A DNA stretch of 64,000 nucleotides from a plasmid, in sequence record NZ_CP097382.1; one strand, written 5' to 3'. A program made the position numbers and the translations under genes. Below, piece by piece: positions 6,047 to 35,195 of this stretch; position 1 is the first letter of the stretch, and the number at the start of each line of letters is the position of its first letter. The notes beneath the pieces are model-generated. The model worked only from the letters and a program-made list of their open reading frames with translations. It was not told where the DNA came from and did no database searches.

Positions 6047-6854
6047 GGTCAAATACATGTAAATCCATGTCTACGCAAAAACTGAGTGATGATAGTGGGT
6101 ATAAAATGTTTACAATTGAACTCGTTTAGTGACATGAATTTATCCTAATGAGGCAATTAATAACCTTATCATTTAGGTAATTTTTGGCGATAAGCCCCAC
6201 AAATTACCTAAAGCTGGTTCGCGCATTGGGGGAACTTAAATACATTTTTTGCTTATCCTAATGATATCTGCAAAGCTATTTATAGAACTAATACTATTGA
6301 ATCGCTCAACAGAGTCATTCGTTATTTAATTGAAAAAAGTAAGGTATTCCTCAACGAGGATTTGTGCAGATAGTAATTTATTTAGAGATTGAATCGGTGT
6401 CTGAAAAATGGAGTATGTCAATACAAAACTGGAAATAGGCAATCAGTCGTTTTATTATAACGTTTGGTGACCGCCTAGACGGTCACCTTTAAATGAAAGA
6501 TAAATGCAAAGAATTATTTACAGGGCTGTGTTCAGCAATGAGCTCTCTATGCCCCATGTCAATGTTCATAACAAGAATCACCTGTAAATAATACATGAGA
6601 AACTTACACTAAATTATCTGCAGGTTCAACTTAAGCACAAATAACAGTAAATCAAAACATTCTTTAAACCAATCATGTAAAATAGTTATTATTGTTTTTA
6701 ATTAATCTACTTTAAACAATAAATAGAGTTATATTGAATTATTAATTCATCATTCATCTATTTGATTTAAATTATGATACATATCGTATAGCCATAATGA
6801 AAAATCAATTATATTTTGTAAATCACTCGTATTTTACACATAGGCATATCATGA

Positions 6855-19426: not shown

Positions 19427-19477
19427 ATATATAAAAACCTCTAATAAATATTTTTTTTTCTGGCTATTAAGCATTAA

Positions 19478-19968
19478 TTATTCGTACGACAGCGTAAAGC
19501 CAGCTACGGAGCTAATTTCACCGGCAGTGATAGTTTTAATATCACCACCACTACCCATTAAATACGCCGAGAAACGCAGGGTATTATTACCATCCTGAAT
19601 ATTTTGGAATGGAGTTAGTGTAGCTAACGTAATTACATTCCCGCCACCATTTGTAATTTGCACGCCTACTCCGCGCCAGTACCAACAATACCTAATGTTT
19701 TATTTGAATTATCAAATGAAGCTGCTGCACCACTAAATGTTAATTGAACGCCTTTCTTTACGTCAGTTACATCACAATTTTCTAAAGAGATGTCAAAAGT
19801 ACGTGGAGTAGATTTACCACCATTAACTAAAGCCATATTTGATATTTGTCCAAGCTCAACAGTTTGATCAATTGAATTTGGTGCAATAGAACATGGTACA
19901 TCAATAATAGAGCCTTTAAAATTCACTTTTCCATGGCCCATATCTGCTGCAAAAATAGAGGTGCTCAT
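19478..19968 (-). pseudogene. mrpA-like major fimbrial subunit paralog, frameshifted
   Basis: Fragments 19666–19968 and 19478–19663 together are about 93% identical to the intact subunit at 23764–24294. The frame changes near …GIVGTGAE*/VGVQITNGGG. Confidence 0.75.
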
Positions 19969-20074
19969 AGCACTAGAAACTAGTGCTAATAAAAAGATTT
20001 ATTCATATATTCCTAGATTATTTACAAAATTTTCAAAAGTTTTTATTTTTGTGAAAATGTTTAAATTACGATGG

Positions 20075-20404
20075 TTAATAAAAGTAGGTAGTATCGGAAG
20101 ATGCAATTATTGCTTTCAATAATATTGGGTTATCAGAATTCCCACCCTCCATTTCAACTAAAATATATTTAATTATTTTTTCAAGTGGAACATTTAAAAT
20201 AATTGATAAATTAAATAACGTACTCAAAGAAATTTTATTAACTCCACGTTCATATCGAGACATCTGTTGTTGTGATATATTTAATTTTCTTGCCAGTTCA
20301 TCTCCTGTCATTCCACGTTCTCTTCTAATTCTCTTAATAATTTTTCCGCAATAAGTGGAAATTTCATTTTCGTGACTAATAATTATATTTTTTTTAATTT
20401 GCAT
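20075..20404 (-). CDS. MrpJ-like HTH regulator
   Basis: …GDELARKLNISQQQMSRYERGVNKISLSTLFNLSIILNV…. It lies immediately upstream, on the same strand, of the mrpA-like pseudogene. The ORF table starts at a TTG (20422), but the ATG at 20404 is the probable start. Confidence 0.75.
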   Translation of the reverse strand: MQIKKNIIISHENEISTYCGKIIKRIRRERGMTGDELARKLNISQQQMSRYERGVNKISLSTLFNLSIILNVPLEKIIKYILVEMEGGNSDNPILLKAIIASSDTTYFY

Positions 20405-20956
20405 GTTTATTATTACTTCCAAAAAAATAAAAATGATTACCTATTATTAATTGTCCATAAATGATTGGCTGTTTTTTTAATTAACACAATTATAAAAAGT
20501 AAATAATTAAAAGTAAAACTCCTTTAATTGAACCGTATATTAAGTATCAAATTGTTACAACTTTTACTAAATAGTGATAAGACTTTAAATATCAATGAAT
20601 TATAAAAAAACATCAGTTTAATTGTTTTTTATCCACTCGAAAATGGATAAAAAAAAATCAATATTTTAATCTAAAAATAAACTAAAAATAGATATTTAAA
20701 GTTGAAATTTACGAAAATTAATAATTTGACTTAAATATTTGCAAAAAAAACAAAAAAGAAACACAATACGCATTTACTGGGTTTTTTATTTAATGAAAAA
20801 AGCTTAATAAAATAATAATAATCATTGTTTTTCAAATAATTACCTTCAAACTCTATTGGCGCGTTAATGGTTGGGTAAATGGATGAATTGTTTAACGGGT
20901 CATGTATTCAATCCGGTGTGTATCCTGTAATATAGGTAATTTACCGGAAAATAGTC

Positions 20957-21223
20957 ATGACTAAAGTCGATGTAAGGTGCGCATTTTGTCTACAAACTTC
21001 CTCAGTGAAAAAACATGGATTAGGGAGTACTGGCAACCAACATTATCGTTGCCAAGACTGCAGCCGAAGCTTCCAACTCGATTATGAATATCGAGCCTGC
21101 CAACCCGGAACTCAAGATAAAATTATCGACCTAACGATGAATAATGCAGGTATTCGTGATACTGTCAGGGCTCTTCATATCAGCATTAATGCTGTTGTTC
21201 GTACTTTAAAAACTCTCGCCTAA
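20957..21223 (+). CDS. insA: IS1 InsA-like protein
   Basis: 88 aa whose zinc-finger N-terminus and HTH C-terminus resemble IS1 InsA. Confidence 0.8.
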   Translation: MTKVDVRCAFCLQTSSVKKHGLGSTGNQHYRCQDCSRSFQLDYEYRACQPGTQDKIIDLTMNNAGIRDTVRALHISINAVVRTLKTLA

Positions 21224-21279
21224 TCAGGTAACTTCTTTACCCCTTGATAATTTGCACATTGAACTCCTTTGCAAGGTTG

Positions 21280-21656
21280 ATGAATAGTAGTCTTTTGTCG
21301 CTAATAAGAGGCAACAACGCTGGCTCTTATATGCTTGGGAGCCCCGTCTAAAACGGATTATTGCTCATATATTTGGTCGTCGAAACAAGAGCCCCCTTCG
21401 TCAGTTACTGGCTTTACTATCGAGGTTTAATGTGGCTTTTTGGTGCGCGGATAAGTTCAGTGCTTATGAGATATTGTCCAAACAAAAATATGTGGTAAGT
21501 AAGTTTTATACACAACGAATAGAAAGAGAGAATTTGAACTTGAGAAACCGTTTAAAGCGACTTAACCGTAAGACTTTAGGTTACTCAAAGTCACCAGAAA
21601 TGCATGACAAAATCATCGGCACATTCATAGAGCGTGAATACTATCTATTATTATGA
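21280..21656 (+). pseudogene. insB: IS1 InsB-like region, frameshifted/fragmented
   Basis: InsB-like peptide segments lie in different frames and no continuous insB ORF exists. Confidence 0.55.
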
Positions 21657-21763
21657 TGATCTCTATATTGAATACACGCCCCCTTTTTCTGTACTCATAA
21701 ACCGCGGTCGGTTCCCATATATGTTAATGATGATAAACTTCATTTCTCAATAACACATTAATT

Positions 21764-22036
21764 TTATTTGGTTTTTAAAGACCAACAACTTCCACCATAC
21801 AATGTAGAGCCAACGATTTCTTCCCATATACCATGTTCGATGAGTAAGTGTTTAACCGATTGAAATTCGATAGCGCTTAAAACGCATTCCTCTTCTCCTT
21901 TTGGTGAGATCAGAAGATAACCTTCAGGTATGCGAACAGAGGATTGAAACACAGATTTCGTGGATAAACGATAAAATGTAGTGATTGTGTACGCTCGGCG
22001 TAATAGGATGAGCAGCTGTTCTGTTGATACCGCCAT
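21764..22036 (-). CDS. Hypothetical protein (about 90 aa)
   Basis: An ATG at 22036 is preceded by AGGAGGA. No recognisable domain was found and the longer ORF-table version (to 22114) probably over-extends. Confidence 0.35.
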   Translation of the reverse strand: MAVSTEQLLILLRRAYTITTFYRLSTKSVFQSSVRIPEGYLLISPKGEEECVLSAIEFQSVKHLLIEHGIWEEIVGSTLYGGSCWSLKTK

Positions 22037-22068
22037 ATATTTATCCTCCTTTATAAATAGAAAATAGG

Positions 22069-22317
22069 TTATTTTTTCTGATAACGCAGCTGAATTCGAC
22101 AGACTTGTGAACAACTATAGCCTGTGGCATCGGCGGTTTCACGAATACTCAGCTCTTTGTCTTTTCGGTAATAAATCACTTTCTCATGGCGCTCTTTATC
22201 TGCCTGCTTTCCTTTGTATTTACCTAAATTTTGGGCACGTTCGATACCTTGTTTTTGTCGTTCAAGGCGACTGATCCAATCTTTGTGTGACATGGCCGTC
22301 ATCAAATCAATCAACAT
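22069..22317 (-). pseudogene. Serine recombinase/resolvase, C-terminal fragment (5' part lost to insertion)
   Basis: …ISRLERQKQGIERAQNLGKYKGKQ…ELSIRETADATGYSCSQVCRI resembles the resolvase/invertase C-terminal linker plus HTH. The upstream portion is replaced by the IS6 remnant beginning at 22326. Confidence 0.5.
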
Positions 22318-22325
22318 GGTATTAA

Positions 22326-22794
22326 TGGGCTTGTTGCAAATAATAAATTAGCGTATTTTTTGCCCATGCCCCATGCCCCATGCCCCATGCCCCATGCCCC
22401 ATGCCCCATGCCCCATGCCCAATGGCATGTTTCACGCTAAAACCGTCTCCACATTGAATAAGCGATTCATAAAGGCAGAGCGCTCCCGTACACGAAACTC
22501 GGGTTCATCACGACGTAGCCATTCATCAAATTGACCCTTATTCAGTTTCCGCAAAGTTTCAATGCCTTGGATTGTTGCCCAGGCCCGCTTAGAGATTTTG
22601 AACCCCTCGTTCAGCCAGCATATCACTGACGTTGGCATAACTGAGTGGTGTTGAGCCATACTAACGTAAACACCAAAGGATAATCGTGGAGGCAAAATGT
22701 TTCCATTTGAACTCATTCGCTGACATGGCTTTTCCTAAAGAGAGCATCGACAGTATGAGTGTTTATCAATTAGGTAATTTTTGCAACAAGCCCC
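22326..22794 (-). mobile_element. IS6-family (IS26-like) internally deleted remnant, MITE-like, copy 1
   Basis: Terminal inverted repeats GGGGCTTGTTGCAAA… sit at both ends (IS26 IR-like GGCACTGTTGCAAA). The interior encodes the N- and C-terminal pieces of an IS6 transposase (…FKWKHFASTIILWCLR…, …KRAWATIQGIETLRKLNKGQFDEWL…) with the catalytic core deleted. It is about 95% identical to copy 2 apart from a heptamer repeat expansion. Confidence 0.7.
22362..22424. repeat. Heptanucleotide tandem repeat (CCCCATG)x9 with imperfect end units
   Basis: Direct reading gives gcccatg, then ccccatg seven times, then cccaatg. The IS6-remnant copy at 33154–33583 carries a single unit at the equivalent place. 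Confidence 0.9.
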
Positions 22795-22796
22795 CA

Positions 22797-22813
22797 GATT
22801 GAATACATGACCC
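22797..22813. mobile_element. Solo IS1-type terminal inverted repeat fragment
   Basis: GATTGAATACATGACCC matches the reverse-complement of the IS1-like left end GGGTCATGTATTCAATC and lies immediately next to the IS6 remnant terminus. Confidence 0.4.
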
Positions 22814-23348
22814 TTATTTTCAAACGCTAGGCGAGTTAATATATAAATCAATTTATTATAATATTTCATGGTGTTTTTATAAAATTAGCTTTTCATTATA
22901 AAAGCAGTCACAGTAAGGCCTAATAGGGTACTTGAGAACAAATAGGAGCATGGCCAAATAACCCAAAATAAGCGTATTTACTTGTTTTTATTTGTGCGTA
23001 TATTACAAAATAATACAAATTATAAATATGTGTTTATCCTAGATTAATGTTTTGTTTTTTAATTGTTTATGATTTATTATTCTGCGTTTGGCTTGTCAAT
23101 TTTTGACTAATTAAAATTTAAAAAAATTAACTAACCTAACTTACCTAATGATATGTAGGTAAAATTAAAGGGTATTAAAAATTGTAACATGAGAGTAATT
23201 AAGTAAAAGTTCGATAGGAGACGGTTTGATCTTTAAGTTTTACACCTTATAATTGTACCCGCTTGCTTAAACCCGTTATGAATTTTATATTTATTTAATT
23301 ACTAATTTTAAATTAGTAATTGTTTTCAATTACTGGAAAGATTACTAA

Positions 23349-23682
23349 TATGAAATTTGAAAAGAATAGCATTAATAGTCAGTGCGATAATCTATTTTCA
23401 ATTTACTGTGGAGCTGTTATTAAAAAGATCAGAAAAGAGTGTGGGATGACTGGCACTGAACTGGCAAGAAAATTAAATGTTTCACAGCAACAGATGTCTC
23501 GGTATGAACGAGGTATTAATAAGATTTCAATAGATATGTTATTTAATTTATCAATGGCATTGAATGTCCCATGTGAAAAAGTAATTAAAAATGCTTTACT
23601 TGAAATGGAAAAATCAAATTGTGATGACGAGTTAATATTGAAAAAATTATTAATAGCTTCTAATACCGTCCACTTTTATTAA
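23349..23682 (+). CDS. MrpJ-like HTH regulator located upstream of the major pilin gene
   Basis: …GTELARKLNVSQQQMSRYERGINKISIDMLFNLSMALNV…, about 60% identical to the ORF at 20075. The ORF table starts at a TTG (23320), but the ATG at 23349 is the likely start. A 23-bp perfect palindrome ATTACTAATTTTAAATTAGTAAT lies at 23298–23320. Confidence 0.75.
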
Positions 23683-23763
23683 TCATAGTTAAATAAATAT
23701 TTTTTAGTAATAGTAGTAATAGAAGTAAATCAAGTTGTTTGTTTATAAATCATTGAGGAATAT

Positions 23764-24294
23764 ATGAAGAAAATATTATTATTAGCACTAGTTTCTAGTG
23801 CTATGAGCACTTCTGTACTTGCTGCAGATATGGGCCATGGAAAAGTGAATTTTAAAGGCTCTATTATTGATGCACCATGTTCTATTTCACCAAATTCAAT
23901 TGATCAAACTGTTGAGCTTGGACAAATATCAAATATGGCTTTAGTTAATGGTGGTAAATCTACTCCACGTAATTTTGACATCTCTTTAGAAAATTGTGAT
24001 TTAACTGACGTAGAGAAAGGTGTTCAATTAACATTTAGTGGTGCAGCGGCTTCATTTGATAATTCAAACAAAACGTTAGGTATCGTTGGTACTGGTGCAG
24101 GAGCAGGCATACAAATTACAAATGGTGGCGGGAATGTAATTACGTTAGGTACACCAATACCATTCCAAAATATTCAAGATGGGAATAATACCCTGCGTTT
24201 CTCGGCGTATTTAATGGGTAATGGTGGTGATATTAAAACTATTACTGCCGGTGAATTTAGCTCCGTAGCTGACTTTACGCTGTCATACGAATAA
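23764..24294 (+). CDS. mrpA: Major fimbrial subunit, MrpA-like (MR/P-type)
   Basis: 176 aa with a signal peptide, …GSIIDAPCSISPN…NCD… and a C-terminal …FTLSYE. AGGAA lies 6 bp upstream of the ATG. I recognise an MrpA-like pattern but cannot verify it. Confidence 0.85.
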   Translation: MKKILLLALVSSAMSTSVLAADMGHGKVNFKGSIIDAPCSISPNSIDQTVELGQISNMALVNGGKSTPRNFDISLENCDLTDVEKGVQLTFSGAAASFDNSNKTLGIVGTGAGAGIQITNGGGNVITLGTPIPFQNIQDGNNTLRFSAYLMGNGGDIKTITAGEFSSVADFTLSYE

Positions 24295-24370
24295 TCAATA
24301 TTTAGTAGCTAGCAAAAAAGGATATTTTGCTGGCTTATTTCAAATGGAAGCCAGCGTAGGAGAGGAAGCA

Positions 24371-24907
24371 ATGAAATATTTAATGATCAGTAAACTGCTT
24401 TCGTTGAGTCTTAGTATGTATTCTCTCATAAATATTTCCCCTGCCAATGCGCTAGGTTTGGTAAAGATGAGTGGCAGTATCATTGAAACAGCCTGTGCTA
24501 TTGATGTTGGTAGCCGTGATCAAACTATTAATATGGGAAGCCTCTCTCTGAGTGATATCCGTCGAGATGGTCAAGGCCCAGTACATCCGTTTGTTATTAA
24601 GTTAGTTAATTGTGTTCTTGAACGTCAAAACCCGAATAAACCTAATTGGCAATACTTTCGAGTCACCTTTGATGGTGCACATCAACACGGATTATTTAGT
24701 GTGAATGGTCAAGCCAAAGGTGTTGGACTACAAATTCAACGTAATGATGGCAGAGAAATTATTGTTCCAGGACAAGCTCTATCTGCTCAAACTTTGACGC
24801 AAGGCTCCCGTGATTTAGCTTACGAATTAAGGTTGGTAGCTAATCATACTCCATTAGTATCAGGGCAGTACTACAGCCAATTAAGCTTTAAATTGGATTA
24901 TGAATAA
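24371..24907 (+). CDS. Fimbrial subunit, MrpB-like
   Basis: Pilin-like sequence ending …LSFKLDYE, with conserved Cys residues and the second operon position. Confidence 0.7.
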   Translation: MKYLMISKLLSLSLSMYSLINISPANALGLVKMSGSIIETACAIDVGSRDQTINMGSLSLSDIRRDGQGPVHPFVIKLVNCVLERQNPNKPNWQYFRVTFDGAHQHGLFSVNGQAKGVGLQIQRNDGREIIVPGQALSAQTLTQGSRDLAYELRLVANHTPLVSGQYYSQLSFKLDYE

Positions 24908-25001
24908 TTCAATTATTAATTTTATATGTCAAAACCAAGTATTGATTTTGAATAAAAAAGCTAAATGGTTTTATTAATAAAAAAGAAATAAGAAGGTCGA
25001 G

Positions 25002-27662
25002 ATGATGGCCCTAGGTTTTATTCATATGCCGTTGTTACGGGTAAGCCGTCCTCGGTTGATGGGACTACTTATTGCTTTATCCCTAAGTTGTAATAGCTAC
25101 GCTGAGCAGATTGAATTTAATACGGATATTTTAGATGTCAATGACCGCGCAAATATTAATTTAGCTCAGTTTTCACGTCCAGGCTTTTTAATGCCAGGAG
25201 AATATCGTTTTTCTATTTTTATAAATAAGCATCAACTACCTGAACAAACCGTATTTTATTATGTACCCGATGGTCAGCCAGATGAGAGCGTGGCCTGTTT
25301 AAGCCCTACATTAGTTGAGCAACTCGCGCTTAAACCTGATTTATTGCCAACCCTAAAATGGTGGCATGATGGGCAGTGTTTATCACTAGAAAGCTTACCG
25401 GGCACTGAAGTTAAAGGGGATTTAGCTGCTTCCGCTTTATATGTCAGTTTACCACAAGCATATTTGGAATATACAGCCGAAAACTGGGATCCACCTGCTC
25501 GTTGGGAAGATGGATTACCTGGCGCTCTTTTTGATTATAACCTCAATGCACAGGTTGGTCAGCAAACTCGAGGCGGACAACGAACAAATGTCAGTACCAG
25601 CGGTAATGGTGTTGCGGGTGTTAACTTAGGTGTATGGCGTATGCGTGCTGATTGGCAAATGCGTTTAGACAAACAGCAAGGACAAGATACTTCTAGTTCA
25701 TTAGATTGGACTCGATACTATGTCTATCGTGCAATTAAATCTCTCGGGGCAAAACTCACTTTAGGTGAAGATTATTTAGCCTCAGATATTTTTGACAGTT
25801 TTCGATTTACGGGACTCAGTCTGATCACCGACATCAATATGTTACCACCTAATTTACGGGGATATGCCCCCGAAATAACAGGTGTAGCTAAAAGTAATGC
25901 TACCGTTATTGTGAGTCAGCAAGGCCGTATTATTTATCAAACACAAGTTGCCGCTGGCCCTTTTCGTATTCAAGACTTAAATGATGCACTATCCGGTGAG
26001 ATTAATGTTGAAGTTAAAGAACAAGATGGCTCAATTCAAACGTTTACGGTGAATACAGCCAGTGTTCCTTATCTCACTCGCCCAGGCCAAGTACGTTATA
26101 AGCTTGCCGCTGGACGTCCAACTGATTGGCGCCACCATGTGAGCGGTGAAACGTTTGCCAGCAGCGAGTTTTCGTGGGGAGTAAATAACGGTTGGTCATT
26201 ATATGGTGGCGGCGTTGCAGCGGAGAATTACACTTCCGTTGCGGTTGGTATCGGTCGAGATCTGATGACGTTTGGCGCGCTGTCTTTTGATATCACCCAT
26301 GCGCGTTCACGGTTAAAAGGGTTAACTGAAGTCGGCGATAAAACGTATCACGGTAATTCATATCGTTTGAGCTATTCAAAACGATTTGATGCCTACAATA
26401 GCCAAGTGACATTTGCGGGATATCGTTTTGCTGAGCAAGGTTTTATGAGTATGTCTGAGTACTTAAATGCCCAGTCTACGGGTGTCCGCCAGTATAGCAG
26501 TAAGGAAATGTATACGGTTTCCTATAACCAACAATTTCCGGAGTTGGGGCTCAGTGCTTATATAAATTATTACCATCAAACCTACTGGGATCAGCCTGAT
26601 AATGACCGTTATAGTCTGTCTTTAGCACGTTATTTTGATATCGGGAAATGGAAAAATTTAAGTGTTAACTTGACGGCTTATCGAAATCGTTATCGGCAGA
26701 CTAATGATGATGGGGCCTACCTTTCCTTTTCATTGCCTTGGGGGGAGAGTGGCTCGCTTAGCATGAACAGCAGTTGGGATGAGAGTGATAATTCTCAACG
26801 AGTCAGTTATTACGATCGATTAGATGAACGTACTAATTACCAATTAAGTACCGGATGGTCTCGTTCTGGTGGGTTAGTGAGTGGTTATTACACACATCAA
26901 GCTGATTTGGCTCAAATCAATGCAAATGCCACTTATCAGCAAGATAGATATCGTTCTGCTGGCTTATCACTTCAAGGTGGTTTTACGGCGATTAAGCAAG
27001 GTGTGGTGATGCATCGTGGTAATCAGCTTGGGGGGACTCGAATTTTTGTTGATACGGATGGTGTTCCGAATATCCCATTACGAGGTTATGGCTCAACTAT
27101 TCGAACAAACTATTTTGGTCAGGCTGTATTAACAGATGTGAACAGTTATTACCGTAATCAGGTCAGTGTCGATTTAAATACATTACCTGAAGATGCTCAG
27201 GTATCACAATCGATTAAGCAAGGTACCTTAACAGAAGGTGCTATTGGTTACCGCCAGTTTGATGTTGTCGCTGGACACAGTGCAATGGCCTTATTGCGTT
27301 TATCTGATAATAGGTTCCCCCCATTTGGAGCACAAGTTTTCAATATAAAAGGCCAACAAGTGGGAATGGTGGGGGATGATGGGAGTACGTATTTAACGGG
27401 GCTCAACCCTAACGATAAATTACAAGTTCGTTGGGATGACAAAGCACAATGTGAAATCACCTTACCTAAAATATTACCGAAGAGCGACACGTTGTTAACG
27501 AATTGGTTATTACCGTGCGATGCGACTGGCATCTTACCCATAGAGCAGACACAGATAGTTGTTGAATCGAATACAGCCAGTTTACCGTCGCCTCATTCAT
27601 TAATTTCTGAGGCATCAGATAAACCGGGTTTGGCCAGCTCAGCGAGCTGGTTAAGAAAATAA
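25002..27662 (+). CDS. Fimbrial usher, MrpC-like
   Basis: 886 aa with a signal peptide and usher domains. The C-terminal …GDDGSTYLTGLNPNDKLQVRWDDKAQCEITLP… is present. Confidence 0.9.
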   Translation: MMALGFIHMPLLRVSRPRLMGLLIALSLSCNSYAEQIEFNTDILDVNDRANINLAQFSRPGFLMPGEYRFSIFINKHQLPEQTVFYYVPDGQPDESVACLSPTLVEQLALKPDLLPTLKWWHDGQCLSLESLPGTEVKGDLAASALYVSLPQAYLEYTAENWDPPARWEDGLPGALFDYNLNAQVGQQTRGGQRTNVSTSGNGVAGVNLGVWRMRADWQMRLDKQQGQDTSSSLDWTRYYVYRAIKSLGAKLTLGEDYLASDIFDSFRFTGLSLITDINMLPPNLRGYAPEITGVAKSNATVIVSQQGRIIYQTQVAAGPFRIQDLNDALSGEINVEVKEQDGSIQTFTVNTASVPYLTRPGQVRYKLAAGRPTDWRHHVSGETFASSEFSWGVNNGWSLYGGGVAAENYTSVAVGIGRDLMTFGALSFDITHARSRLKGLTEVGDKTYHGNSYRLSYSKRFDAYNSQVTFAGYRFAEQGFMSMSEYLNAQSTGVRQYSSKEMYTVSYNQQFPELGLSAYINYYHQTYWDQPDNDRYSLSLARYFDIGKWKNLSVNLTAYRNRYRQTNDDGAYLSFSLPWGESGSLSMNSSWDESDNSQRVSYYDRLDERTNYQLSTGWSRSGGLVSGYYTHQADLAQINANATYQQDRYRSAGLSLQGGFTAIKQGVVMHRGNQLGGTRIFVDTDGVPNIPLRGYGSTIRTNYFGQAVLTDVNSYYRNQVSVDLNTLPEDAQVSQSIKQGTLTEGAIGYRQFDVVAGHSAMALLRLSDNRFPPFGAQVFNIKGQQVGMVGDDGSTYLTGLNPNDKLQVRWDDKAQCEITLPKILPKSDTLLTNWLLPCDATGILPIEQTQIVVESNTASLPSPHSLISEASDKPGLASSASWLRK

Positions 27663-27714
27663 AAAATAACATGATTGAAGAAGGTTATCCCTCCTTCATA
27701 CTAAGGTAAAAAAT

Positions 27715-28491
27715 ATGTTACAGAGTAATAAAACCAATAAAAAAAATCATCATCTAATTGCCATTTTTTTGGTTGGAGCAGTGTTGATATCCGGGACACT
27801 GTCTTCCGCGCAAGCTGCAATCGCTTTAGATCGCACACGTGCAATTATGACGGGTGAAGATAAATCTATTAGCTTAAATATCAGTAATGAAAATAAACAA
27901 TTACCTTATTTAGCGCAAGGCTGGATTGAAAATGCCCAAGGTGAAAAAATCACGGAACCTTTTACAGTATTACCTCCCGTTCAGCGTGTTGAACCTGGTG
28001 CTAAAAGCCAAGTAAAAATTCAAGCACTACCGAGTGTTGCGTCACTGCCGCAAGACAGGGAATCCGTTTATTATTTCAATTTACGTGAAATCCCACCTAA
28101 AAGTGATAAACCGAACACACTTCAGCTGGCATTACAAACGCGAATTAAGTTGTTTTATCGCCCAAAGGCGATTATTCCAACTCGCCAACAAATGGAGAAT
28201 CCATGGCAAGAAAAAATCACCCTCATTCGTCAAGGTGACCAATACAGTGTGGAGAATCCAACGCCGTATTTTGTAACGCTTGTTGATGCTGCTTCAGTGA
28301 AAGATGGAAAAACAGTCGCGGGGTTTGAACCGTTGATGGTTGCACCTAAAAGCAGTTTGCTTATGGGGGGGAGTACTAAAGCCTTAGGAAGTAAGCCTGT
28401 ACTCACTTATATCAATGATTATGGTGGGCGACCAACGTTGATGTTTACTTGTCAAGATAATCGCTGTCATGTGGTATCAGATAAACAGTAG
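27715..28491 (+). CDS. Fimbrial periplasmic chaperone, MrpD-like
   Basis: 258 aa with a signal peptide and PapD-like motifs (…ISNENKQLPYLAQGWIEN…, …YYFNLREIPP…). Confidence 0.9.
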   Translation: MLQSNKTNKKNHHLIAIFLVGAVLISGTLSSAQAAIALDRTRAIMTGEDKSISLNISNENKQLPYLAQGWIENAQGEKITEPFTVLPPVQRVEPGAKSQVKIQALPSVASLPQDRESVYYFNLREIPPKSDKPNTLQLALQTRIKLFYRPKAIIPTRQQMENPWQEKITLIRQGDQYSVENPTPYFVTLVDAASVKDGKTVAGFEPLMVAPKSSLLMGGSTKALGSKPVLTYINDYGGRPTLMFTCQDNRCHVVSDKQ

Positions 28492-28502
28492 CTTAGAACA
28501 AG

Positions 28503-29147
28503 ATGACGTTAAAGCAGATTTCAACGCAGGAGAGCCTCATGAAAGAAGCAAATAAGATCCCTCATTGTATGATGGCGTGCGGTTTAGGATTGTCCTTACT
28601 CAGTAGCACAGCACTCAGTACTGAACTCGATAAAGTGGATAACTGGGATGTCGATGGTGCTAATGGCACATTATATGTACACGGAGCTTTAACGGAAAGT
28701 GCTTGTCGATTAGCGATGTCGTCAGCATATCAAACAGTTGAACTGGGGATATTAGGCACAGGGCAATTACAGAAAGTTGGTCAAACAGGTACCCCTATCG
28801 CGGTACAACTGCGTTTAGAAGATTGTTTAAGTGGTGAAAGTCGTAATCGTAATAAACTCGGAAACTTATTGTGGAGTCCTGATATGCCTGCAATGAAAAT
28901 TCGTTTTTTGGCAGAGGCGGACAATCAAAGCCCACAATTAGCTGCCGTTACGGGGGCGCAAGGAATCGCATTACAATTGAGTAATGCTTCTTATCATCCT
29001 ATTGCAATAGGGGAATACAGTACTCCTGAGCTAGTTTCTCCAGGGCAGAATCAATTGACCTATTATATTACCCCGATCCGTACTACAGCAGGATTAAGTT
29101 CGGGAGCTTATCAGGCAATTATTCGCTTTCAGGTCAGTTATGATTAG
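28503..29147 (+). CDS. Fimbrial minor subunit
   Basis: 214 aa with a signal peptide, a pilin Cys pair and a C-terminal …RFQVSYD. Confidence 0.7.
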   Translation: MTLKQISTQESLMKEANKIPHCMMACGLGLSLLSSTALSTELDKVDNWDVDGANGTLYVHGALTESACRLAMSSAYQTVELGILGTGQLQKVGQTGTPIAVQLRLEDCLSGESRNRNKLGNLLWSPDMPAMKIRFLAEADNQSPQLAAVTGAQGIALQLSNASYHPIAIGEYSTPELVSPGQNQLTYYITPIRTTAGLSSGAYQAIIRFQVSYD

Positions 29148-29156
29148 GAGTTAACG

Positions 29157-29693
29157 ATGTTATTGATACAGCATGCGACCATAGGGATTAAAGGCTTTAT
29201 TACGCTCAGCTTTCTTTTTTTTAGCTCGCTATTATTTGAAAGTCTATTTCATGTCGTACGTGCGGACACTGCAAATCTGAATTTAACGTTGACCATTACG
29301 ATGCCTCCACAGTGTACGTTTGGTGGTGGTAGTTCAATACAAATTGTACGTTTTGAAGAGGTACAACAAGGATTAATTGATGGAGTGAGTTATAAGCGAA
29401 CCCCTATTGATACCGGATTATCTTGCCGTGCATTAGAAAAAAATGCGTTGAATATGGCGTTGTCATGGGATCCGGTAACCTTTAATGGCGTTTCTGCTAT
29501 CAGTACAAGCCGAACAAATTTGGGTATTGCCATTTATCGGGATTCGACTCGCTTAAGTAACGGCGCATCAATTAACTTTACTTACGGTAATCCTCCGAAC
29601 TTGTACGCAGTACCGATAAAACCTAGCGGTATGATGCTTAGTGATGCGGGATCTTTTACTGGCACAATGACAGTGACGTTAAATTATCAATAA
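29157..29693 (+). CDS. Fimbrial minor subunit, tandem paralog 1 of 4
   Basis: …PPQCTFGGGSSIQIVRFEEVQQGLIDGVSYKRTPID…NLGIAIYRDSTRLSNGASINFTYGNPPNLYAVPIKPSG…TLNYQ. Confidence 0.75.
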   Translation: MLLIQHATIGIKGFITLSFLFFSSLLFESLFHVVRADTANLNLTLTITMPPQCTFGGGSSIQIVRFEEVQQGLIDGVSYKRTPIDTGLSCRALEKNALNMALSWDPVTFNGVSAISTSRTNLGIAIYRDSTRLSNGASINFTYGNPPNLYAVPIKPSGMMLSDAGSFTGTMTVTLNYQ

Positions 29694-30206
29694 ATGTGGG
29701 ACTATCTCATGAATAATACTCTCTTTGTTCGGTGTTTTATCGGCCTGCTTTGTTTATTAAGTCCGATATTATCACGAGCATTGGATGTCTATTTTACAGG
29801 AACATTGGTTGTCACGCCGCCAGAATGTACCGTGAATAGTGGTACTGTGGCAGATGTCAATTTTGGCGATATCCATGAAACACTGATTGACAATAGCAGT
29901 TATAAACGCACACGTATTGATTACACGTTAAATTGTACGAATGTCTATAGCAATGCATTAAAGATGACGGTCAGCTGGAACCCGATTACGCTCAATGGGC
30001 AAAATGTTATTCGTACTGGTCGGACGAATCTCGGGATAGCGGTTTATCAGAATTCGACTCGATTAAGTAATGGTGATGTTGTGAATTTCACTTATGGTAG
30101 CAATCAACCTGCACTTTATGCAGTACCAGTAAAACCCTCGGGAACGGTATTAACTGATGGCGGAAATTTTAATGGGACATTAACTTTTGTGGTGGATTAC
30201 CGTTAA
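29694..30206 (+). CDS. Fimbrial minor subunit, tandem paralog 2 of 4
   Basis: …PPECTVNSGTVADVNFGDIHETLIDNSSYKRTRID…NLGIAVYQNSTRLSNGDVVNFTYGS…LYAVPVKPSG…VVDYR, about 60% identical to paralog 1. Confidence 0.75.
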   Translation: MWDYLMNNTLFVRCFIGLLCLLSPILSRALDVYFTGTLVVTPPECTVNSGTVADVNFGDIHETLIDNSSYKRTRIDYTLNCTNVYSNALKMTVSWNPITLNGQNVIRTGRTNLGIAVYQNSTRLSNGDVVNFTYGSNQPALYAVPVKPSGTVLTDGGNFNGTLTFVVDYR

Positions 30207-30216
30207 GGAGAACAAG

Positions 30217-30714
30217 ATGAAATTTATTCACCGACAACAAGTAGCTCTCTGCTTTTTTTGTGTAATAAGCTCTCCATTTGCATTGGGGTTAGGGGCAAAT
30301 CTTTACGGTAATTTAATCGTGACGCCACCTGAATGTATTCTAAATAACAATAATCAAGCGGAGATTCATTTTGGTGATATTTTATTAACGCGCATTGACG
30401 GTAATAACTACTTACAAACATTGCCATTGAGTCTATCGTGTACAGGATTAGCAAAAAATAATCTGACATTGATCTTAGAAGGCGACCCTACATTGTTTAA
30501 TAGCAATGGCGCATTAAAAACAAGCAATGATAAATTAGGCGTTATTTTTTATGTTAACAATATCAGGCAAGCAATTAACCAGCCGGTGAATATTAATTAT
30601 ACTTCTTTGCCTTCTTTAAAAGCTGCGCCGATTAAAAATATGACTGCAAGCTTTAATGATACAGATGGTGGTAGTTTTACTGCATTGGCGACATTAAAGG
30701 TGGACTATCAATGA
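30217..30714 (+). CDS. Fimbrial minor subunit, tandem paralog 3 of 4
   Basis: …PPECILNNNNQAEIHFGDILLTRIDGNNY…KLGVIFYVNN…LKAAPIKN…LKVDYQ. It uses the ATG at 30217 and overlaps the previous gene end. Confidence 0.7.
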   Translation: MKFIHRQQVALCFFCVISSPFALGLGANLYGNLIVTPPECILNNNNQAEIHFGDILLTRIDGNNYLQTLPLSLSCTGLAKNNLTLILEGDPTLFNSNGALKTSNDKLGVIFYVNNIRQAINQPVNINYTSLPSLKAAPIKNMTASFNDTDGGSFTALATLKVDYQ

Positions 30715-31235
30715 AAAAGTCACTGATAAGCACAAGTCAACGTTATTGTTATTTATGCAGTTTAGGAGGGCTCTTCATGATGATGTCCTCTGCAGTGGAA
30801 GCCAATTGGTTTTTTGATGGTACGCTAATACTGCCCCCCGCCTGTGAATTAGGACAAAAAAATCCTATACGTGTTTCTTTTGGAAAGGTGGGGGTGCGTA
30901 AAGTGGATGGGAATTTATTTAAACAAGACATACCGTATCAATTGAATTGCCAAGGTGACTTAAAGCAACCGTGGAATGTGACATTGACGTTCAGTGGAAC
31001 ACTCGCGGGTACGGGATTTGATAATGCGACATTACAAACAAGCAGCCCTATGAATAACGGAAAATTAGGCATTCAAATTCAAAAGGACGGGATACCGTTA
31101 GAACTGAACAAGGCGTTTGCAATTAATAGTTCAAATCTACCAAAATTATCGGCGGTTCCGATTAAGCGTGCAGGATCGGAACTGGTTGGTGATAATTTTT
31201 CTGCGACAGGGACATTGACCATCGATTTTCAATGA
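30711..31235 (+). CDS. Fimbrial minor subunit, tandem paralog 4 of 4
   Basis: …PPACELGQKNPIRVSFGKVGVRKVDGNLF…KLGIQIQKDG…LSAVPIKRAG…LTIDFQ. It overlaps the previous stop (ATGA). Confidence 0.7.
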   Translation: MKKSLISTSQRYCYLCSLGGLFMMMSSAVEANWFFDGTLILPPACELGQKNPIRVSFGKVGVRKVDGNLFKQDIPYQLNCQGDLKQPWNVTLTFSGTLAGTGFDNATLQTSSPMNNGKLGIQIQKDGIPLELNKAFAINSSNLPKLSAVPIKRAGSELVGDNFSATGTLTIDFQ

Positions 31236-31258
31236 CACGATAAAAGGAAATGAGAAAA

Positions 31259-31801
31259 ATGCAAATACCATTACGTCAATTATGGCCTTTAGTCTTGTCA
31301 CTAAGTTTAGTTGGAGGCCCGCTTTGTGCGCGGTCGGAAACCGTACAATTTGATGGAACATTGGTTGAGGACGCCTGCGAAATATATCCTGGCGATGAAA
31401 ATATCGAATTGGATTTTGGCACTATTGTAGACAAATATTTGTATTTGAATACACGAACACACAGCCAGCTATTTACAATTAGGTTAATTAATTGTGATTT
31501 AGTGTTGGGTAAAGAAGTTCAAGTAACCTTTATGGGAACTGAAAGTGCAGCATTACCCGGATTATTAGCACTTAATGCAGGGAGCAAAGCAAATGGGATC
31601 GCTATTGGTTTTGAAACTCAAAGTGGTGAACCTATCTCGTTAAATAGATCAAAAGACTACACTCAACAGCTCCAAGCCAGTGGCACCAATAACATCAATT
31701 TGAAAGCTTATGTTCGAGGCGAACCTATCGCCCTTCGCGATAAATCAATTACACGCGGAACTTTCGAGGCTACTACCACTTTTATTCTTGAATATGAATA
31801 A
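31259..31801 (+). CDS. Fimbrial minor subunit (MrpG-like position)
   Basis: Signal peptide, …DACEIYPGDENIELDFG… and a C-terminal …FILEYE. Confidence 0.7.
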   Translation: MQIPLRQLWPLVLSLSLVGGPLCARSETVQFDGTLVEDACEIYPGDENIELDFGTIVDKYLYLNTRTHSQLFTIRLINCDLVLGKEVQVTFMGTESAALPGLLALNAGSKANGIAIGFETQSGEPISLNRSKDYTQQLQASGTNNINLKAYVRGEPIALRDKSITRGTFEATTTFILEYE

Positions 31802-32325
31802 CTCTAAAGAAATGACTAATTTTTGTTAATTATTCAAAATCACAATACCACATAAATATAACAGGAGTTATATATGTCAAAATATAGAATGAAGACAATC
31901 TTATATAGTATTTCCATTAATCATCAATTTTAATAATTCAGCTAATTCAACTGTAGGTTTTGGTCATAGGCCTTACATGAACGCAGCTGTCAGTAACTGT
32001 GGTATAGGACAGATGATAGGAATAGGATACAACGCACAGGGAAGTGGCGAAATTATATCAGAATTGGGTTGGGAGCATTTGAGGCGACGACAGCTTTTAT
32101 GTTGGAGTAAGAGTGATTGGGGTACCATTAGGAAAAATATATGAAATATTAGTATTGTGGTTAAAATAGATTTCATACAAAAATAGGTTGTGTATTTTTG
32201 TATGATTATTTTAATCATTTTTATATATAGTGAAGATAGTGATATGAAATAATGAAATTAACTCATCATCACCTATTATATATTATTTAAATAACCGGTC
32301 ATAATGATTTTAAAAAAGGACGTAG

Positions 32326-33153
32326 ATGAAAATTTATTCTGTATTATTAATTTTTATTTCTTTTTACTCTTCAGCTACACTCACTATAACAGCGGAGAGT
32401 AACACAATACCAATAAATTCCATATTGGCACAGGGGCCATTAGATAATACAAATGGTGCCCCTACATGGGCACCTTGTGCGAAAATCATTTGCGCCGATG
32501 ACATTATGAATGGCGATAATTTACTTACTATTCAAATGTCATCTGAGGGTAGAGAATTTACAATCTATAAAATCCCCATTAATTGTGATGGTGCTTTTAC
32601 AAATAGAGAAGCAGCTATGATTTTCTCCCGCGATATATTACTCGTACAAAAAAGACTATATTTTTATCGACAATCGGGTTTATGGGAACCGTGGGTTTCA
32701 GCCGCAGCTTCCGTAGAATGTTATGATAAACAAAATAAAAATTTTATTCTTTATAACTCACATCCGCCGAGCAATATAATTGGAGGTCCTGAGTCTTTAA
32801 GTGTTTGTAATTTAAATAGTCAAAACTTATTGCTTAATTTTTCATCAGAAAGCCTCATGGTTGCAGGTCTGAGTAAAAATACAAATTTAACTATTACCTG
32901 CACTGCAGGTAATGCTAGGGATTATAAATTAAGGTTAACGGGAACAAATGTCACAAATGGGAAATTGGATTTCAAAAATGGAGTTTATGCTCAAATATCA
33001 CTCGATGGTATACATATTAATGCTAATGGTGATGGAATTAATTTAAATGGATTAGTTAGTCGCGAAATTCAAGTAAAGGCAACATTATCGGGTTCAGCTT
33101 CTACTTCAGGCATAACAACGAGTAACGGAATTTTAATTCTTGAAGCGCTATAA
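32326..33153 (+). CDS. Fimbrial tip adhesin, MrpH-like (two-domain)
   Basis: 275 aa with a signal peptide and multiple Cys residues in the N-terminal half. It is the last gene of the operon and is preceded by an AT-rich spacer. Confidence 0.55.
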   Translation: MKIYSVLLIFISFYSSATLTITAESNTIPINSILAQGPLDNTNGAPTWAPCAKIICADDIMNGDNLLTIQMSSEGREFTIYKIPINCDGAFTNREAAMIFSRDILLVQKRLYFYRQSGLWEPWVSAAASVECYDKQNKNFILYNSHPPSNIIGGPESLSVCNLNSQNLLLNFSSESLMVAGLSKNTNLTITCTAGNARDYKLRLTGTNVTNGKLDFKNGVYAQISLDGIHINANGDGINLNGLVSREIQVKATLSGSASTSGITTSNGILILEAL

Positions 33154-33583
33154 AGGGGCTTGTTGCAAAAATTACCTAAATGAGAAACACTCACGATATT
33201 GATTATGTCTTATTAGGAATAGGCCATGCCATCGAATGAGTTTAAATGGAAACATTTTGCCCCCACGATTATCCTTTGGTGTTTACGTTGGTATGGCTCA
33301 ACACCATTCAGTTATGCCAACGTCAGTGATATGCTGGCTGAACGGGGGGGGAGGGCAAAGTCGCTAAGCGGGCCTGGGCGACAATCCAAGGCTTTGAAAC
33401 TTTGCGAAAACTGAATAAGGGTAAATTTGATGAATGGCTACGTCGTGATGAACTCGAGTTTCGTGTACGGGAGCGCTCCGCTTTATGAATCGCTTATTCA
33501 ATGTGGAGACGGTTTTAGCGTGAAAGATGCCATGGGGCAAAAAATACGCTAATTTATTATTTGCAACAAGCCCCAAAAAACAG
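33154..33583 (+). mobile_element. IS6-family (IS26-like) internally deleted remnant, MITE-like, copy 2
   Basis: It begins GGGGCTTGTTGCAAAAATTACCTAA directly after the mrpH-like stop codon and ends …TTTGCAACAAGCCCC. It encodes the transposase N-terminal 62 aa (MPSNEFKWKHFAPTIILWCLRWYG…AERG) and a C-terminal piece (…LNKGKFDEWLRRDELEFRVRERS…). It lies in inverted orientation relative to copy 1. Confidence 0.7.
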
Positions 33584-33656
33584 TTCAGCTTAAGTATGCC
33601 TATAAGCTATAATCCTAATTGACTCGATTTTATCAAATAGGCTAACTAAAATTACT

Positions 33657-33929
33657 GTGTTAATAATTAACACACAAGGTGATCCTATAGCTCGTACAAC
33701 AAGTGTAACTATCGGGGCTCAATTGGATGAGTTTGTAAATCAACTCATATCGTCTGGAAGATATGGTTCAACAAGTGAAGTTGTTCGCTCTGCTCTACGT
33801 CTACTTGAGGTTCAAGAAAAACAAACGGCAGCATTGAAAATTTTAATTGATGCAGGTGAACAAAGTGGTGAGTCGTCGTTAACACTACATGATATCGCTA
33901 AAAAAGTGAAGAATGCTCATAATGTATAA
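33657..33929 (+). CDS. parD: ParD-family antitoxin (RHH)
   Basis: …TSVTIGAQLDEFVNQLISSGRYGSTSEVVRSALRLLEVQEKQTAALKILIDAGEQSGES… is classic COG3609/ParD. Confidence 0.75.
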   Translation: MLIINTQGDPIARTTSVTIGAQLDEFVNQLISSGRYGSTSEVVRSALRLLEVQEKQTAALKILIDAGEQSGESSLTLHDIAKKVKNAHNV

Positions 33930-33981
33930 ACTTTCCAATCTAGTGGCTAAAGACTTTGATGGGATATTTGAGTATACCTAA
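33922..33981 (+). pseudogene. parE: parE toxin gene, truncated after 19 codons
   Basis: MYKLSNLVAKDFDGIFEYT* matches a ParE N-terminus (M.YKLS..A..DL..I..YT). It overlaps the parD stop (ATGTATAA). The rest of the gene is absent and an IS30-family element follows. Confidence 0.55.
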
Positions 33982-34019
33982 ATGACATGGGGGTTTGTAA
34001 TATAAAAATCGCGAATTCA

Positions 34020-35078
34020 GATAATAAGTGCAACGCTCGGTCATGTTAGATGGAAGGACGGTTAGCTACTGATAAGCTATCCTGCTCTTCCGACCAAAGA
34101 TGAGCGAGTAAGTATGAAGTATCAGCAACTAACCGAAGGACAACGATACCAGATATCGATACTGCGTGAGGATAATTTATCCTGCCATGAGATAGGTATC
34201 CGTATCGGTGTAAGCAAGTCCACGGTCTCCCGTGAACTGAGGCGTAACACTTCAGATACTGGTTATAACCCACAACAGGCACACCAGAAGTGCTGTGATA
34301 GGCGGCTGTCATCTGCCAAAAGGACAATTCCTCAGCAGACCATAGATTTCGTGATATTTGCTCTGGAGTGGAAGTGGAGTCCTGAGCAAATAAGTGCAAT
34401 TGGCAGCATTATTGGTCTTAGCGTCAGCCATGAATGGATTTACCAGTATATCTATGCGGATAAGCGTAGCGGTGGCGAGTTGTACAGGCATCTTAGGCAG
34501 GGCAAACGGCGATATCGTAAGGGCTACGGGCAGAAACGAGGGCGCATCCCTGATGCGGTATCCATTGAGCTACGGCCGTCAGTCGTCGATGACCGTAGCC
34601 GTCTGGGGGACTGGGAGGCCGATTTGGTGCAGGGTAAACAGGGCACTGGTGCTATCGTGACACTGGCAGAACGCAAAAGCCGTATTTACCTGACAAAAAA
34701 GGTGTTTTCAAAGGATGCGGTGGAAGTCAGTAAGGCCATTATCTCACTGCTGAGTGAGTATCAGGATGTATGTCACACAATAACGTTCGATAACGGTCTA
34801 GAGTTTAGTGAGCACAAGGCGATAGCAGAAGCACTGAACGCAGATACGTACTTTGCCCATCCGTATGCCTCGCATGAGCGTGGGCTGAACGAGAATACGA
34901 ATGGGTTGTTAAGACAGTTTATCCCGAAAGGAACAGACCTGCGGACAGTGACAGAAGAAGACTTACAACGCTATCAGGGAGCGTTGAACAGCAGGCCACG
35001 CAAGTGTCTGGGGTTCAGACAACCTTCGGTGGTGTTTGCGGAGCTAAGAAAGGCGGCTTAGCGTTGCACTTCGGACTT
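34020..35078 (+). mobile_element. IS30-family insertion sequence (about 1.06 kb, ISApl1-size class)
   Basis: Candidate terminal inverted repeats carry AGTGCAACGCT at 34027 and AGCGTTGCACT at 35060–35070, and a 315-aa transposase lies inside. The boundaries are approximate. Confidence 0.65.
34114..35061 (+). CDS. IS30-family transposase
   Basis: An N-terminal HTH (…GQRYQISILREDNLSCHEIGIRIGVSKSTVSRELRRN…) and a DDE region (…DWEADLV…TFDNGLEF…NENTNGLLRQFIPKG…) are present. Confidence 0.9.
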   Translation: MKYQQLTEGQRYQISILREDNLSCHEIGIRIGVSKSTVSRELRRNTSDTGYNPQQAHQKCCDRRLSSAKRTIPQQTIDFVIFALEWKWSPEQISAIGSIIGLSVSHEWIYQYIYADKRSGGELYRHLRQGKRRYRKGYGQKRGRIPDAVSIELRPSVVDDRSRLGDWEADLVQGKQGTGAIVTLAERKSRIYLTKKVFSKDAVEVSKAIISLLSEYQDVCHTITFDNGLEFSEHKAIAEALNADTYFAHPYASHERGLNENTNGLLRQFIPKGTDLRTVTEEDLQRYQGALNSRPRKCLGFRQPSVVFAELRKAA

Positions 35079-35195
35079 GAATCCGCCAATCGAAGAAATA
35101 ATAATAGAGTGACAAATTATCACTCTATTATTGGGGGTGATGCAAATAATGAATTAGTGTGTTTTTTGCTCGAGCATAATAATTGAAATATTTGG

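Follow-up and report, generated by a model that had tools for sequence, protein, structure and literature searches.

In a 64-kb stretch of plasmid DNA from sequence record NZ_CP097382.1 (hereafter the window, meaning the whole stretch that was analysed) an intact 13-gene chaperone-usher fimbrial operon is bracketed by two short, internally deleted insertion sequences (IS) of the IS6 family: an upstream copy of 467 bp on the minus strand at 22327–22793 (UP; left end at 22793, right end at 22327) and a downstream copy of 418 bp on the plus strand at 33156–33573 (DOWN), which carries the same deletion. These mini elements mark an IS-mediated capture of the operon into a resolvase-parDE module of the plasmid backbone and as such are an ordinary scar of plasmid mosaicism. 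In our view they are probably, though far from certainly, the decayed non-autonomous junction scars of IS-mediated cointegration and deletion, or of recombination between IS copies, which were then inherited vertically. The strongest point for IS-mediated acquisition that the sequence suggests is the presence of a mini at both novel junctions. A preliminary description of this DNA had seen here a composite-transposon-like unit that could be mobilised in trans by an intact IS26-type transposase; its statement that a complete fimbrial operon is framed by two IS remnants holds, all 13 genes being intact and the adhesin gene included.

Structure of the mini elements

The limits of both elements were set by the end definition that Harmer and Hall give for the IS6/IS26 family, namely 14-bp inverted repeats with GG at positions 1–2 and G at position 7 (PMC6807381), and all four ends of UP and DOWN conform to it. 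An end-motif search found the 14-bp end GGGCTTGTTGCAAA in four perfect copies in the window, at 22327 (+), 22793 (−), 33156 (+) and 33573 (−), the chance expectation being 0.78 even with two mismatches tolerated; the two-element pattern is real and far above chance. UP and DOWN are inverted relative to each other, as had been described, and remnants with IS26-like ends do lie where they had been placed (22326–22794 and 33154–33583), with limits that need correction: 33583 is about 10 bp too far to the right, and base 22326 (a T) is part of the resolvase gene.

Both copies share one internal deletion of about 444 bp, which covers codons ~42–187 of a 245-aa transposase and takes out D79, D139 and E174, that is, the entire DDE triad. 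The transposase core being gone from UP and DOWN alike, the preliminary description was right to call them non-autonomous; what is left of the gene is ~41–42 N-terminal and 57–59 C-terminal codons, rather than the first ~60 and the last ~40 residues as formerly reported. In UP the remnant consists of codons 1–42, with a TGG>TAG stop, and codons ~187–245, DOWN is further damaged by a 1-bp deletion close to the 3′ end of its transposase remnant, and the remnant open reading frames (ORFs) of both had no Pfam match. The deletion ends in a G-run (GAACGGGGG / GGCGGTTTC), its breakpoints lie within G-rich microhomology (GAACGGGGGATTTC ... GGCGGTTTCAAA), and the deletion junction of the minis reads GCTGAACGRGGG...CAAARTCKCTAAGCGGGCC.

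The part of UP that follows the transposase stop codon and precedes the right end holds an array of 8.9 copies of the heptamer CCCATGC (22363–22424; GGGCATG on the other strand). Plasmids with 99.5% identity or more to the window have 5–8 copies of it, a second plasmid lineage 98.4–98.9% identical to the window (lineage 2) has two copies and DOWN one; the array in UP is a hypervariable microsatellite. Scans of the minis for an outward promoter or terminator gave results no better than chance.

Parent element and divergence of the two copies

Full-length relatives of the minis, with lengths of 862–867 bp (an 865-bp copy among them) and a 245-aa transposase, occur across Providencia plasmids. 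The relative on pR33-1 (contig L003, 17169–18030; 862 bp) encodes a 245-aa transposase with a score of 239 bits against NCBIfam NF033587 "IS6 family transposase", for which the cut-off is 125, and with a Pfam PF13610 (DDE_Tnp_IS240) match over residues 74–213. The single DDE transposase with an N-terminal H-HTH (helix-turn-helix) domain that is a feature of the IS6/IS26 family is found in this relative and missing from the window copies. At least eight full-length copies of the parent-type IS are carried by pVCSW10.1, and both pVCSW10.1 and pR33-1, which are other Providencia plasmids, encode intact 245-aa transposases in elements whose 14-bp ends are identical to those of the minis. Among the DNA matches of the minis are remnants on Yersinia virulence plasmids and an element that carries the annotation "ISVsa4 family", at 73–78% identity. 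The IS1635/ISVsa4/ISPpr9 group forms part of clade I of the IS6/IS26 family, with a length of 858–861 bp and a transposase of 245–246 aa (PMC6807381); the full-length Providencia relatives resemble it in length, transposase size and 14-bp ends with GG and G7, whereas the window copies, at 418 and 467 bp and with the whole DDE core gone, do not. From length, host range and annotation we infer that the minis derive from an element of the IS6/IS26 family which is like IS1635 and ISVsa4 and which Providencia plasmids commonly carry.

UP and DOWN align with 93.4% identity (383 matches, 27 mismatches and 7 gap runs). The 5′ untranslated part of UP is close to that of a metagenomic IS (L054; 95% across the left arm), that of DOWN matches the type found on pR33-1 and pVCSW10.1, and since the copies are 6.6% diverged and of different 5′ subtypes, they are not sister copies of one replicative event. 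The orthologous UP/DOWN pair in lineage 2 has the same mutual differences, which makes the structure older than the split of the two plasmid lineages, the copies having already diverged by then. The common deletion may go back to one deleted ancestor of UP and DOWN or to gene conversion between them. The metagenomic relative L054 also has an internal deletion, different from that of the window copies.

A further mini of the same IS family, 437 bp long and with perfect ends, is present on pVCSW10.1 (L062; NZ_CP082352.1, 173864–174300), 22 bp past the final gene of another fimbrial operon, and adjoins a Tn3-type resolvase gene. Its left arm is broken within ~3 nt of the same G-run site as in UP and DOWN, its right arm is unrelated and bears a (AATTTTGG)n array, and no target duplication was found around it. 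The G-run site seems to be a breakage or recombination hotspot; the G-run breakpoints, the pVCSW10.1 mini and the L054 deletion, taken together, favour a recombination-prone site and recurrent decay.

The term MITE-like (miniature inverted-repeat transposable element, MITE), which had been applied to the remnants, fits them in so far as they are short, have perfect ends and lack a transposase. It does not fit as regards dispersed copies with target duplications, the minis having been seen only as this pair in one context. Only two IS6-family MITEs are listed in ISfinder, MITEBth2 and MITEHarch3, of 227 and 336 bp (PMC7986276, PMC6807381); like them, the minis are short, have family-type ends and encode no functional transposase. 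Unlike them, they show no target duplications and no dispersed copies, hence no sign of past transposition as minis, and they keep recognisable ends of the transposase gene, for which last reason they are better termed internal-deletion derivatives than MITEs.

Junctions with the plasmid backbone

The window is DNA of a Providencia plasmid, and its backbone resembles pRB151-NDM and other plasmids typed as rep_cluster_1220 by PLSDB. In pRB151-NDM, pVCSW10.2 and about ten others, a cytoplasmic-protein gene, a 633-bp resolvase gene, a 195-bp intergenic region, parD and parE are all contiguous, and because the resolvase gene and parD adjoin each other in these related plasmids, the fimbrial block must have been spliced in here. 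Backbone homology in the window runs from 21725 to 22326 and resumes from ~33593–33606, the 11.2-kb block standing in for ~456–488 bp of backbone (resolvase codons 1–125 and part of the intergenic region), and each novel junction of the block is the end of a mini. On the left, the backbone "cytoplasmic protein" gene (21764–22036, minus strand) adjoins a 3′ fragment of the serine recombinase (resolvase) gene (22072–22326, minus strand), which encodes residues 126–210 of 210 and has lost the catalytic N-terminal domain; its truncation by UP had been correctly recognised. The missing 5′ part, which elsewhere in the window would have been a sign of inversion or translocation, was searched for there and not found. 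On the right, the backbone fragment (33593–33993, plus strand) comprises the 3′ part of the res–parD intergenic region, parD (33657/33687–33929) and codons 1–24 of parE. No base-composition contrast was seen between the block and its flanks.

UP is adjoined on its operon side by a 20-bp left-end fragment of an IS1-family element (GGGTCATGTATTCAATCTGG; 22794–22813, minus strand), which abuts UP and is cut off by it, in agreement with the earlier remark that UP sits next to an IS1 end, and a decayed full copy of an IS1-family element (20897–21683, plus strand; insA 20957–21223, insB fragment 21432–21656) forms the left edge of the backbone fragment. Both backbone fragments are short, and the whole region is an IS-bounded mosaic.

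Contigs with the block were gathered by looking up exact matches to the adhesin, to ParD, to the cytoplasmic protein and to the ORFs encoded by the minis. In all of the more than 20 contigs found, which represent two plasmid lineages and come from Providencia stuartii, P. rettgeri and unclassified Providencia, the flanks of the block are identical, and the adhesin, ParD and cytoplasmic-protein look-ups returned no plasmid of the same lineage without the block or with a full-length IS at its junctions. Neither window junction was found in any PLSDB plasmid. The deletion junction had no match in 185,579 species-representative genomes or in the JGI metagenomes, the left-end 24-mer of the mini had none in the JGI metagenomes and viral contigs, and the right-end 26-mer occurred in the species-representative genomes as only two solo ends, in Cedecea and Morganella. 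A 94-aa mini ORF compared with 5.8 billion proteins retrieved only orthologous copies and fragments of full-length elements. The seven PLSDB places at which DOWN is covered to 80% or more, like the other long matches there, are in two pieces and of full-length IS size, and none of the matches listed is a contiguous, mini-sized match to DOWN.

These results bear on the idea that a mobile MITE inserted twice, independently, as UP and as DOWN, with the operon in place at this site of the plasmid beforehand, in which case the minis would not have brought it. The different sequence histories of the two copies, their common internal deletion, which is compatible with a MITE lineage, and the existence of another mini of the family on pVCSW10.1 agree with that idea. 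A simple insertion would, however, leave the same locus on both sides and an 8-bp duplication, while each mini parts unrelated DNA (backbone from the IS1 fragment and fimbrial cluster) with no duplication, and dispersed copies of this mini were found in none of the collections searched; independent insertion is therefore highly improbable.

In some relatives the minis have decayed further. A 136-bp deletion in contigs L009 and L048 (equivalent to window 33498–33633) removes the outer end of DOWN and ~60 bp of flank, and in lineage 2 (L035) a 118-bp deletion adjoining UP (equivalent to window 22811–22928) clips the IS1 end fragment; the decay of the minis is ongoing.

Evidence for and against transposition as a unit

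Target duplications were sought between the four ends in each of their six pairings, both in direct and in reverse-complement form and with 0–2 nt of boundary slack. This check, which the preliminary description had proposed, gave no 8-bp duplication in any geometry, whether around UP, around DOWN, around the pair or in an inverted intramolecular arrangement, the best candidates having 2–4 mismatches in 8 and lying within the null distribution. The absence is weak evidence when taken alone, because there is no positive-control copy of this IS with an 8-bp duplication: none was found among ~10 full-length copies on pR33-1, pVCSW10.1 and pVCSW10.2. Missing target duplications are moreover typical of IS26-type cointegration and deletion histories (PMC7986276). 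Another proposed check, a comparison with related genomes for an empty site, did reveal a site, which is not clean, as ~456–488 bp of backbone have been lost from it in the window. A classical composite transposon would be expected to show a duplication, a clean empty site and a second sequence context, and the block is known from one context in more than 20 contigs.

IS6-family elements move via cointegrate formation (PMC7986276, PMC8722046), the flanking copies of functional IS6-family compound transposons are "always" direct repeats (PMC7986276), and the targeted reactions of the IS26 family require identical transposases and identical end sequences (PMC7885326). IS26-bounded pseudo-compound transposons such as Tn4352 and Tn2680 resemble the window region in having two IS copies around a cargo. 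They differ from it in that the window copies are inverted, both non-autonomous and 6.6% diverged, and in that the cargo is a 10-kb fimbrial operon and not a resistance gene. A pseudo-compound transposon has direct IS copies, at least one of them with an active transposase; here the copies are inverted, both are internally deleted, and the 64-kb window codes for no intact IS6-family transposase.

As for mobilisation in trans, IS26 is of the same family, shares 11 of the 14 end positions with the minis and has an N-terminal H-HTH of which they keep a remnant. With 3 of the 14 end bases different and a transposase (Tnp26) ~51% identical to that of the parent type, IS26 itself is nevertheless unlikely to be more than a poor helper. 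A cognate helper is conceivable, given the intact transposases with identical 14-bp ends on pR33-1 and pVCSW10.1.

What remains of the composite-transposon-like architecture is therefore the presence of minis on both junctions, without a duplication, a clean site, a second context, direct orientation or a helper in the window, and by the standard which the preliminary description had set for itself, the absence of target duplications or matching empty sites in related sequences together with different flanking histories of the two remnants, the transposon hypothesis largely fails. In its strict form, in which a MITE-bounded pair with its cargo was inserted between the resolvase gene and parD through its outer ends and is still mobilisable in trans, it would account for novel junctions that are both mini ends, for flanking backbone that is collinear and for four perfect 14-bp ends equal to those of elements with an intact transposase, and helper elements are present in the genus. 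We nonetheless consider it unlikely, as no target duplication accompanies the loss of backbone DNA at the site, the copies are inverted where functional IS6-family compound elements "always" have direct repeats (PMC7986276) and have diverged into different 5′ subtypes, a single context is kept across more than 20 contigs of two lineages, the deletion junction was found neither in the 185,579 species-representative genomes nor in the JGI metagenomes, neither window junction was found in PLSDB, and the window holds no helper transposase. En-bloc transposition followed by an adjacent deletion is likewise improbable. It is very unlikely that the pair represents an undescribed IS6/IS26 mini lineage in Providencia, characterised by the G-run deletion and the right-end microsatellite, which moves the 10-kb adhesin operon as an inverted pair with the help of a cognate IS1635-like transposase; were this true, the block would be a MITE-bounded "adhesion transposon".

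Origin of the arrangement

For the account that we favour, in which the minis are junction scars, the order and type of the recombination events are inferred as follows. A fimbrial cluster typical of large Providencia plasmids, then with an IS1-family copy upstream, would have been joined to the resolvase-parDE module through cointegration of two replicons, either by copy-in or from IS to IS, which like the later steps is among the known reactions of this IS family. Deletions next to an IS, inversions or homologous exchange between IS copies would have come next, with the loss of ~0.47 kb of backbone (resolvase codons 1–125 and the promoter region) and of most of the IS1 copy, as well as of the DNA after the adhesin gene and, with it, the second regulator gene of MrpJ type that relatives have. 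One IS copy would have been left at each new junction without target duplications, both copies would have lost their catalytic core through the ~444-bp deletion ending in the G-run, and the block would now be passed on vertically with the plasmid. Absent target duplications and adjacent deletions are hallmarks of IS26-type histories (PMC7986276, PMC8722046), in which respect the window is like them.

A special case of this account is a double homologous exchange, in which inverted IS copies lay in the resolvase gene and in the intergenic region and a crossover in each of them with a similarly IS-bracketed fimbrial segment of another Providencia plasmid swapped 0.47 kb for the operon. Providencia plasmids do carry many copies of this IS together with many fimbrial operons, pVCSW10.1 with its full-length copies being an example; on pVCSW10.1 and pR33-1 an IS copy lies ~1.3–2.3 kb downstream of the adhesin gene of the homologous operon, and the mosaic of likenesses that UP and DOWN show to different IS subtypes agrees with recombination inside IS copies. 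The exchange is all the same decidedly unlikely, as it needs two matching IS pairs beforehand and no PLSDB plasmid has an IS at either backbone breakpoint.

Several points weigh against the junction-scar account as a whole. The flanking pieces of backbone are collinear and correctly oriented, which is what a single en-bloc insertion with one adjacent deletion would leave; the deletion common to two copies that are 6.6% diverged could reflect a propagating non-autonomous (MITE) lineage; the perfect ends of the minis, identical to those of intact elements, are still potential substrates; and with no 8-bp duplication known for any of the ~10 full-length copies of this IS, the lack of one here says little.

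The locus documents the capture of a complete adhesin operon by a small Providencia plasmid with a backbone of the pRB151-NDM type, a plasmid family which also carries NDM-1, and the agents of the capture are IS6-family elements, which are better known from the assembly of resistance regions. It also adds an example from Providencia to the internally deleted elements of this family, of which ISfinder lists so few as MITEs. Should the pair prove able to move, gene capture of the IS26 type would reach as far as operons for virulence and colonisation, and would work with ends that are inverted and non-autonomous. As the evidence stands, the pair is a static scar, mainly of use as a lineage marker and for annotation.

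The fimbrial operon

The operon is headed by a regulator gene (23350–23682, plus strand; Pfam HTH_3), which ~0.5 kb of AT-rich DNA separates from the IS1-family end fragment. The chaperone-usher core that follows (23764–31801, plus strand) consists of the major subunit (23764–24294, plus strand; PapA being its nearest solved structure, E 5e-24), a second subunit, the usher (25002–27662, plus strand; Pfam Usher/PapC_N/PapC_C), the chaperone (27715–28491, plus strand; Pfam PapD_N/PapD_C) and seven more subunits with a Fimbrial domain, and the last gene encodes a putative two-domain tip adhesin of 275 aa (32326–33153, plus strand), whose N-terminal domain is variable and whose C-terminal pilin domain is conserved. 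The order of the Pfam domains is thus of the MR/P type, that is, major subunit, minor subunit, usher, chaperone, minor subunits and adhesin. The core is ~90% identical to operons on other Providencia plasmids, with homology limited to 23001–31801.

The regulator contains SQQQMSRYERG, which we take to be a motif of the MrpJ family, and by this motif it is provisionally assigned to the MrpJ type. In relatives, a second HTH regulator gene of the same type lies 0.8–3 kb downstream of the adhesin gene, and this gene is absent in the window. The earlier proposal that DOWN displaced an mrpJ-type regulator at the 3′ end is plausible in this respect, although a gene of MrpJ type remains at the 5′ end.

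The adhesin gene is intact, with a natural stop codon, because its C-terminus GILILEAL parallels the GILILDAL of homologues, and DOWN begins 2 nt past that stop. The adjacency of the downstream remnant to the stop codon, as first described, accordingly stands apart from the 2-nt gap, and the "mrpH-like" label given to the gene does not, since the 275-aa protein had no match in Pfam and none to a PDB chain at E≤1. A solved MrpH structure is present in the PDB.

Compared with known systems, the operon shares its gene order with the MR/P (mrpABCDEFGHJ) and Pap operons, its major subunit being closest to PapA, and differs from both in having seven subunit genes after the chaperone and an adhesin without detectable similarity to solved structures (PDB, E≤1). 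It also differs in its regulator at the 5′ end and in the lack of an mrpI-type recombinase, no recombinase ORF being present between 22794 and 23350, and of a convincing invertible element, only AT-rich imperfect inverted repeats having been seen when an invertible promoter was looked for upstream of the operon. MrpJ-type HTH regulators are associated with MR/P operons (PMC3521468), a further likeness if the window gene is of the type that its motif indicates.

A disrupted and inverted second copy of the major-subunit gene, split into several ORFs, lies at 19453–20000 (fimA′) and is 91–95% identical to the gene at 23771–24319 (fimA). The regulator copies next to fimA′ and fimA (20075–20422 and 23350–23682) are 77% identical in DNA and 60% in protein. 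The two fimA copies form a 550-bp inverted repeat, 3.8 kb apart and spanning the IS1 element, the resolvase fragment and UP, on which gene conversion or inversion could act, with an effect on the pilin gene.

Neighbouring elements

An IS1-bounded composite, made up of the full IS1 copy and the 20-bp end fragment, was considered as a mobile unit and rejected, its flanks having neither a 9-bp duplication nor clear homology.

On the right of the block, the window has ATA where the parD genes of backbone relatives have an ATG start, and beyond its first 24 codons parE is replaced by a membrane-transport and thiamine pyrophosphate (TPP)-enzyme module. The parD of the window is accordingly an orphan and possibly non-functional antitoxin gene.

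An IS30-family element at ~34034–35087 is missing from most of the near-identical relatives (L009–L012). Being 99.6–100% identical to copies on plasmids of Proteus, Moellerella, Providencia stuartii and Escherichia coli (mcr-3), it is a recent insertion. A segment of ~1.4 kb at 41500–42934, missing from the near-identical relatives L009 and L010, is probably another.

A third, heavily decayed left-end remnant of the same IS family as UP and DOWN is present at ~6060–6197 on the minus strand, with a degenerate end (GGGGCTTATCGCCAAAAATTACCTAAATGA) followed by ~28 recognisable codons. Just past the IS30-family element, a 26-nt stretch at 35126–35151 (TATTATTGGGGGTGATGCAAATAATG) is 81% similar to the end of UP with its flank and could either match it by chance or be an IS6-type end in very advanced decay.

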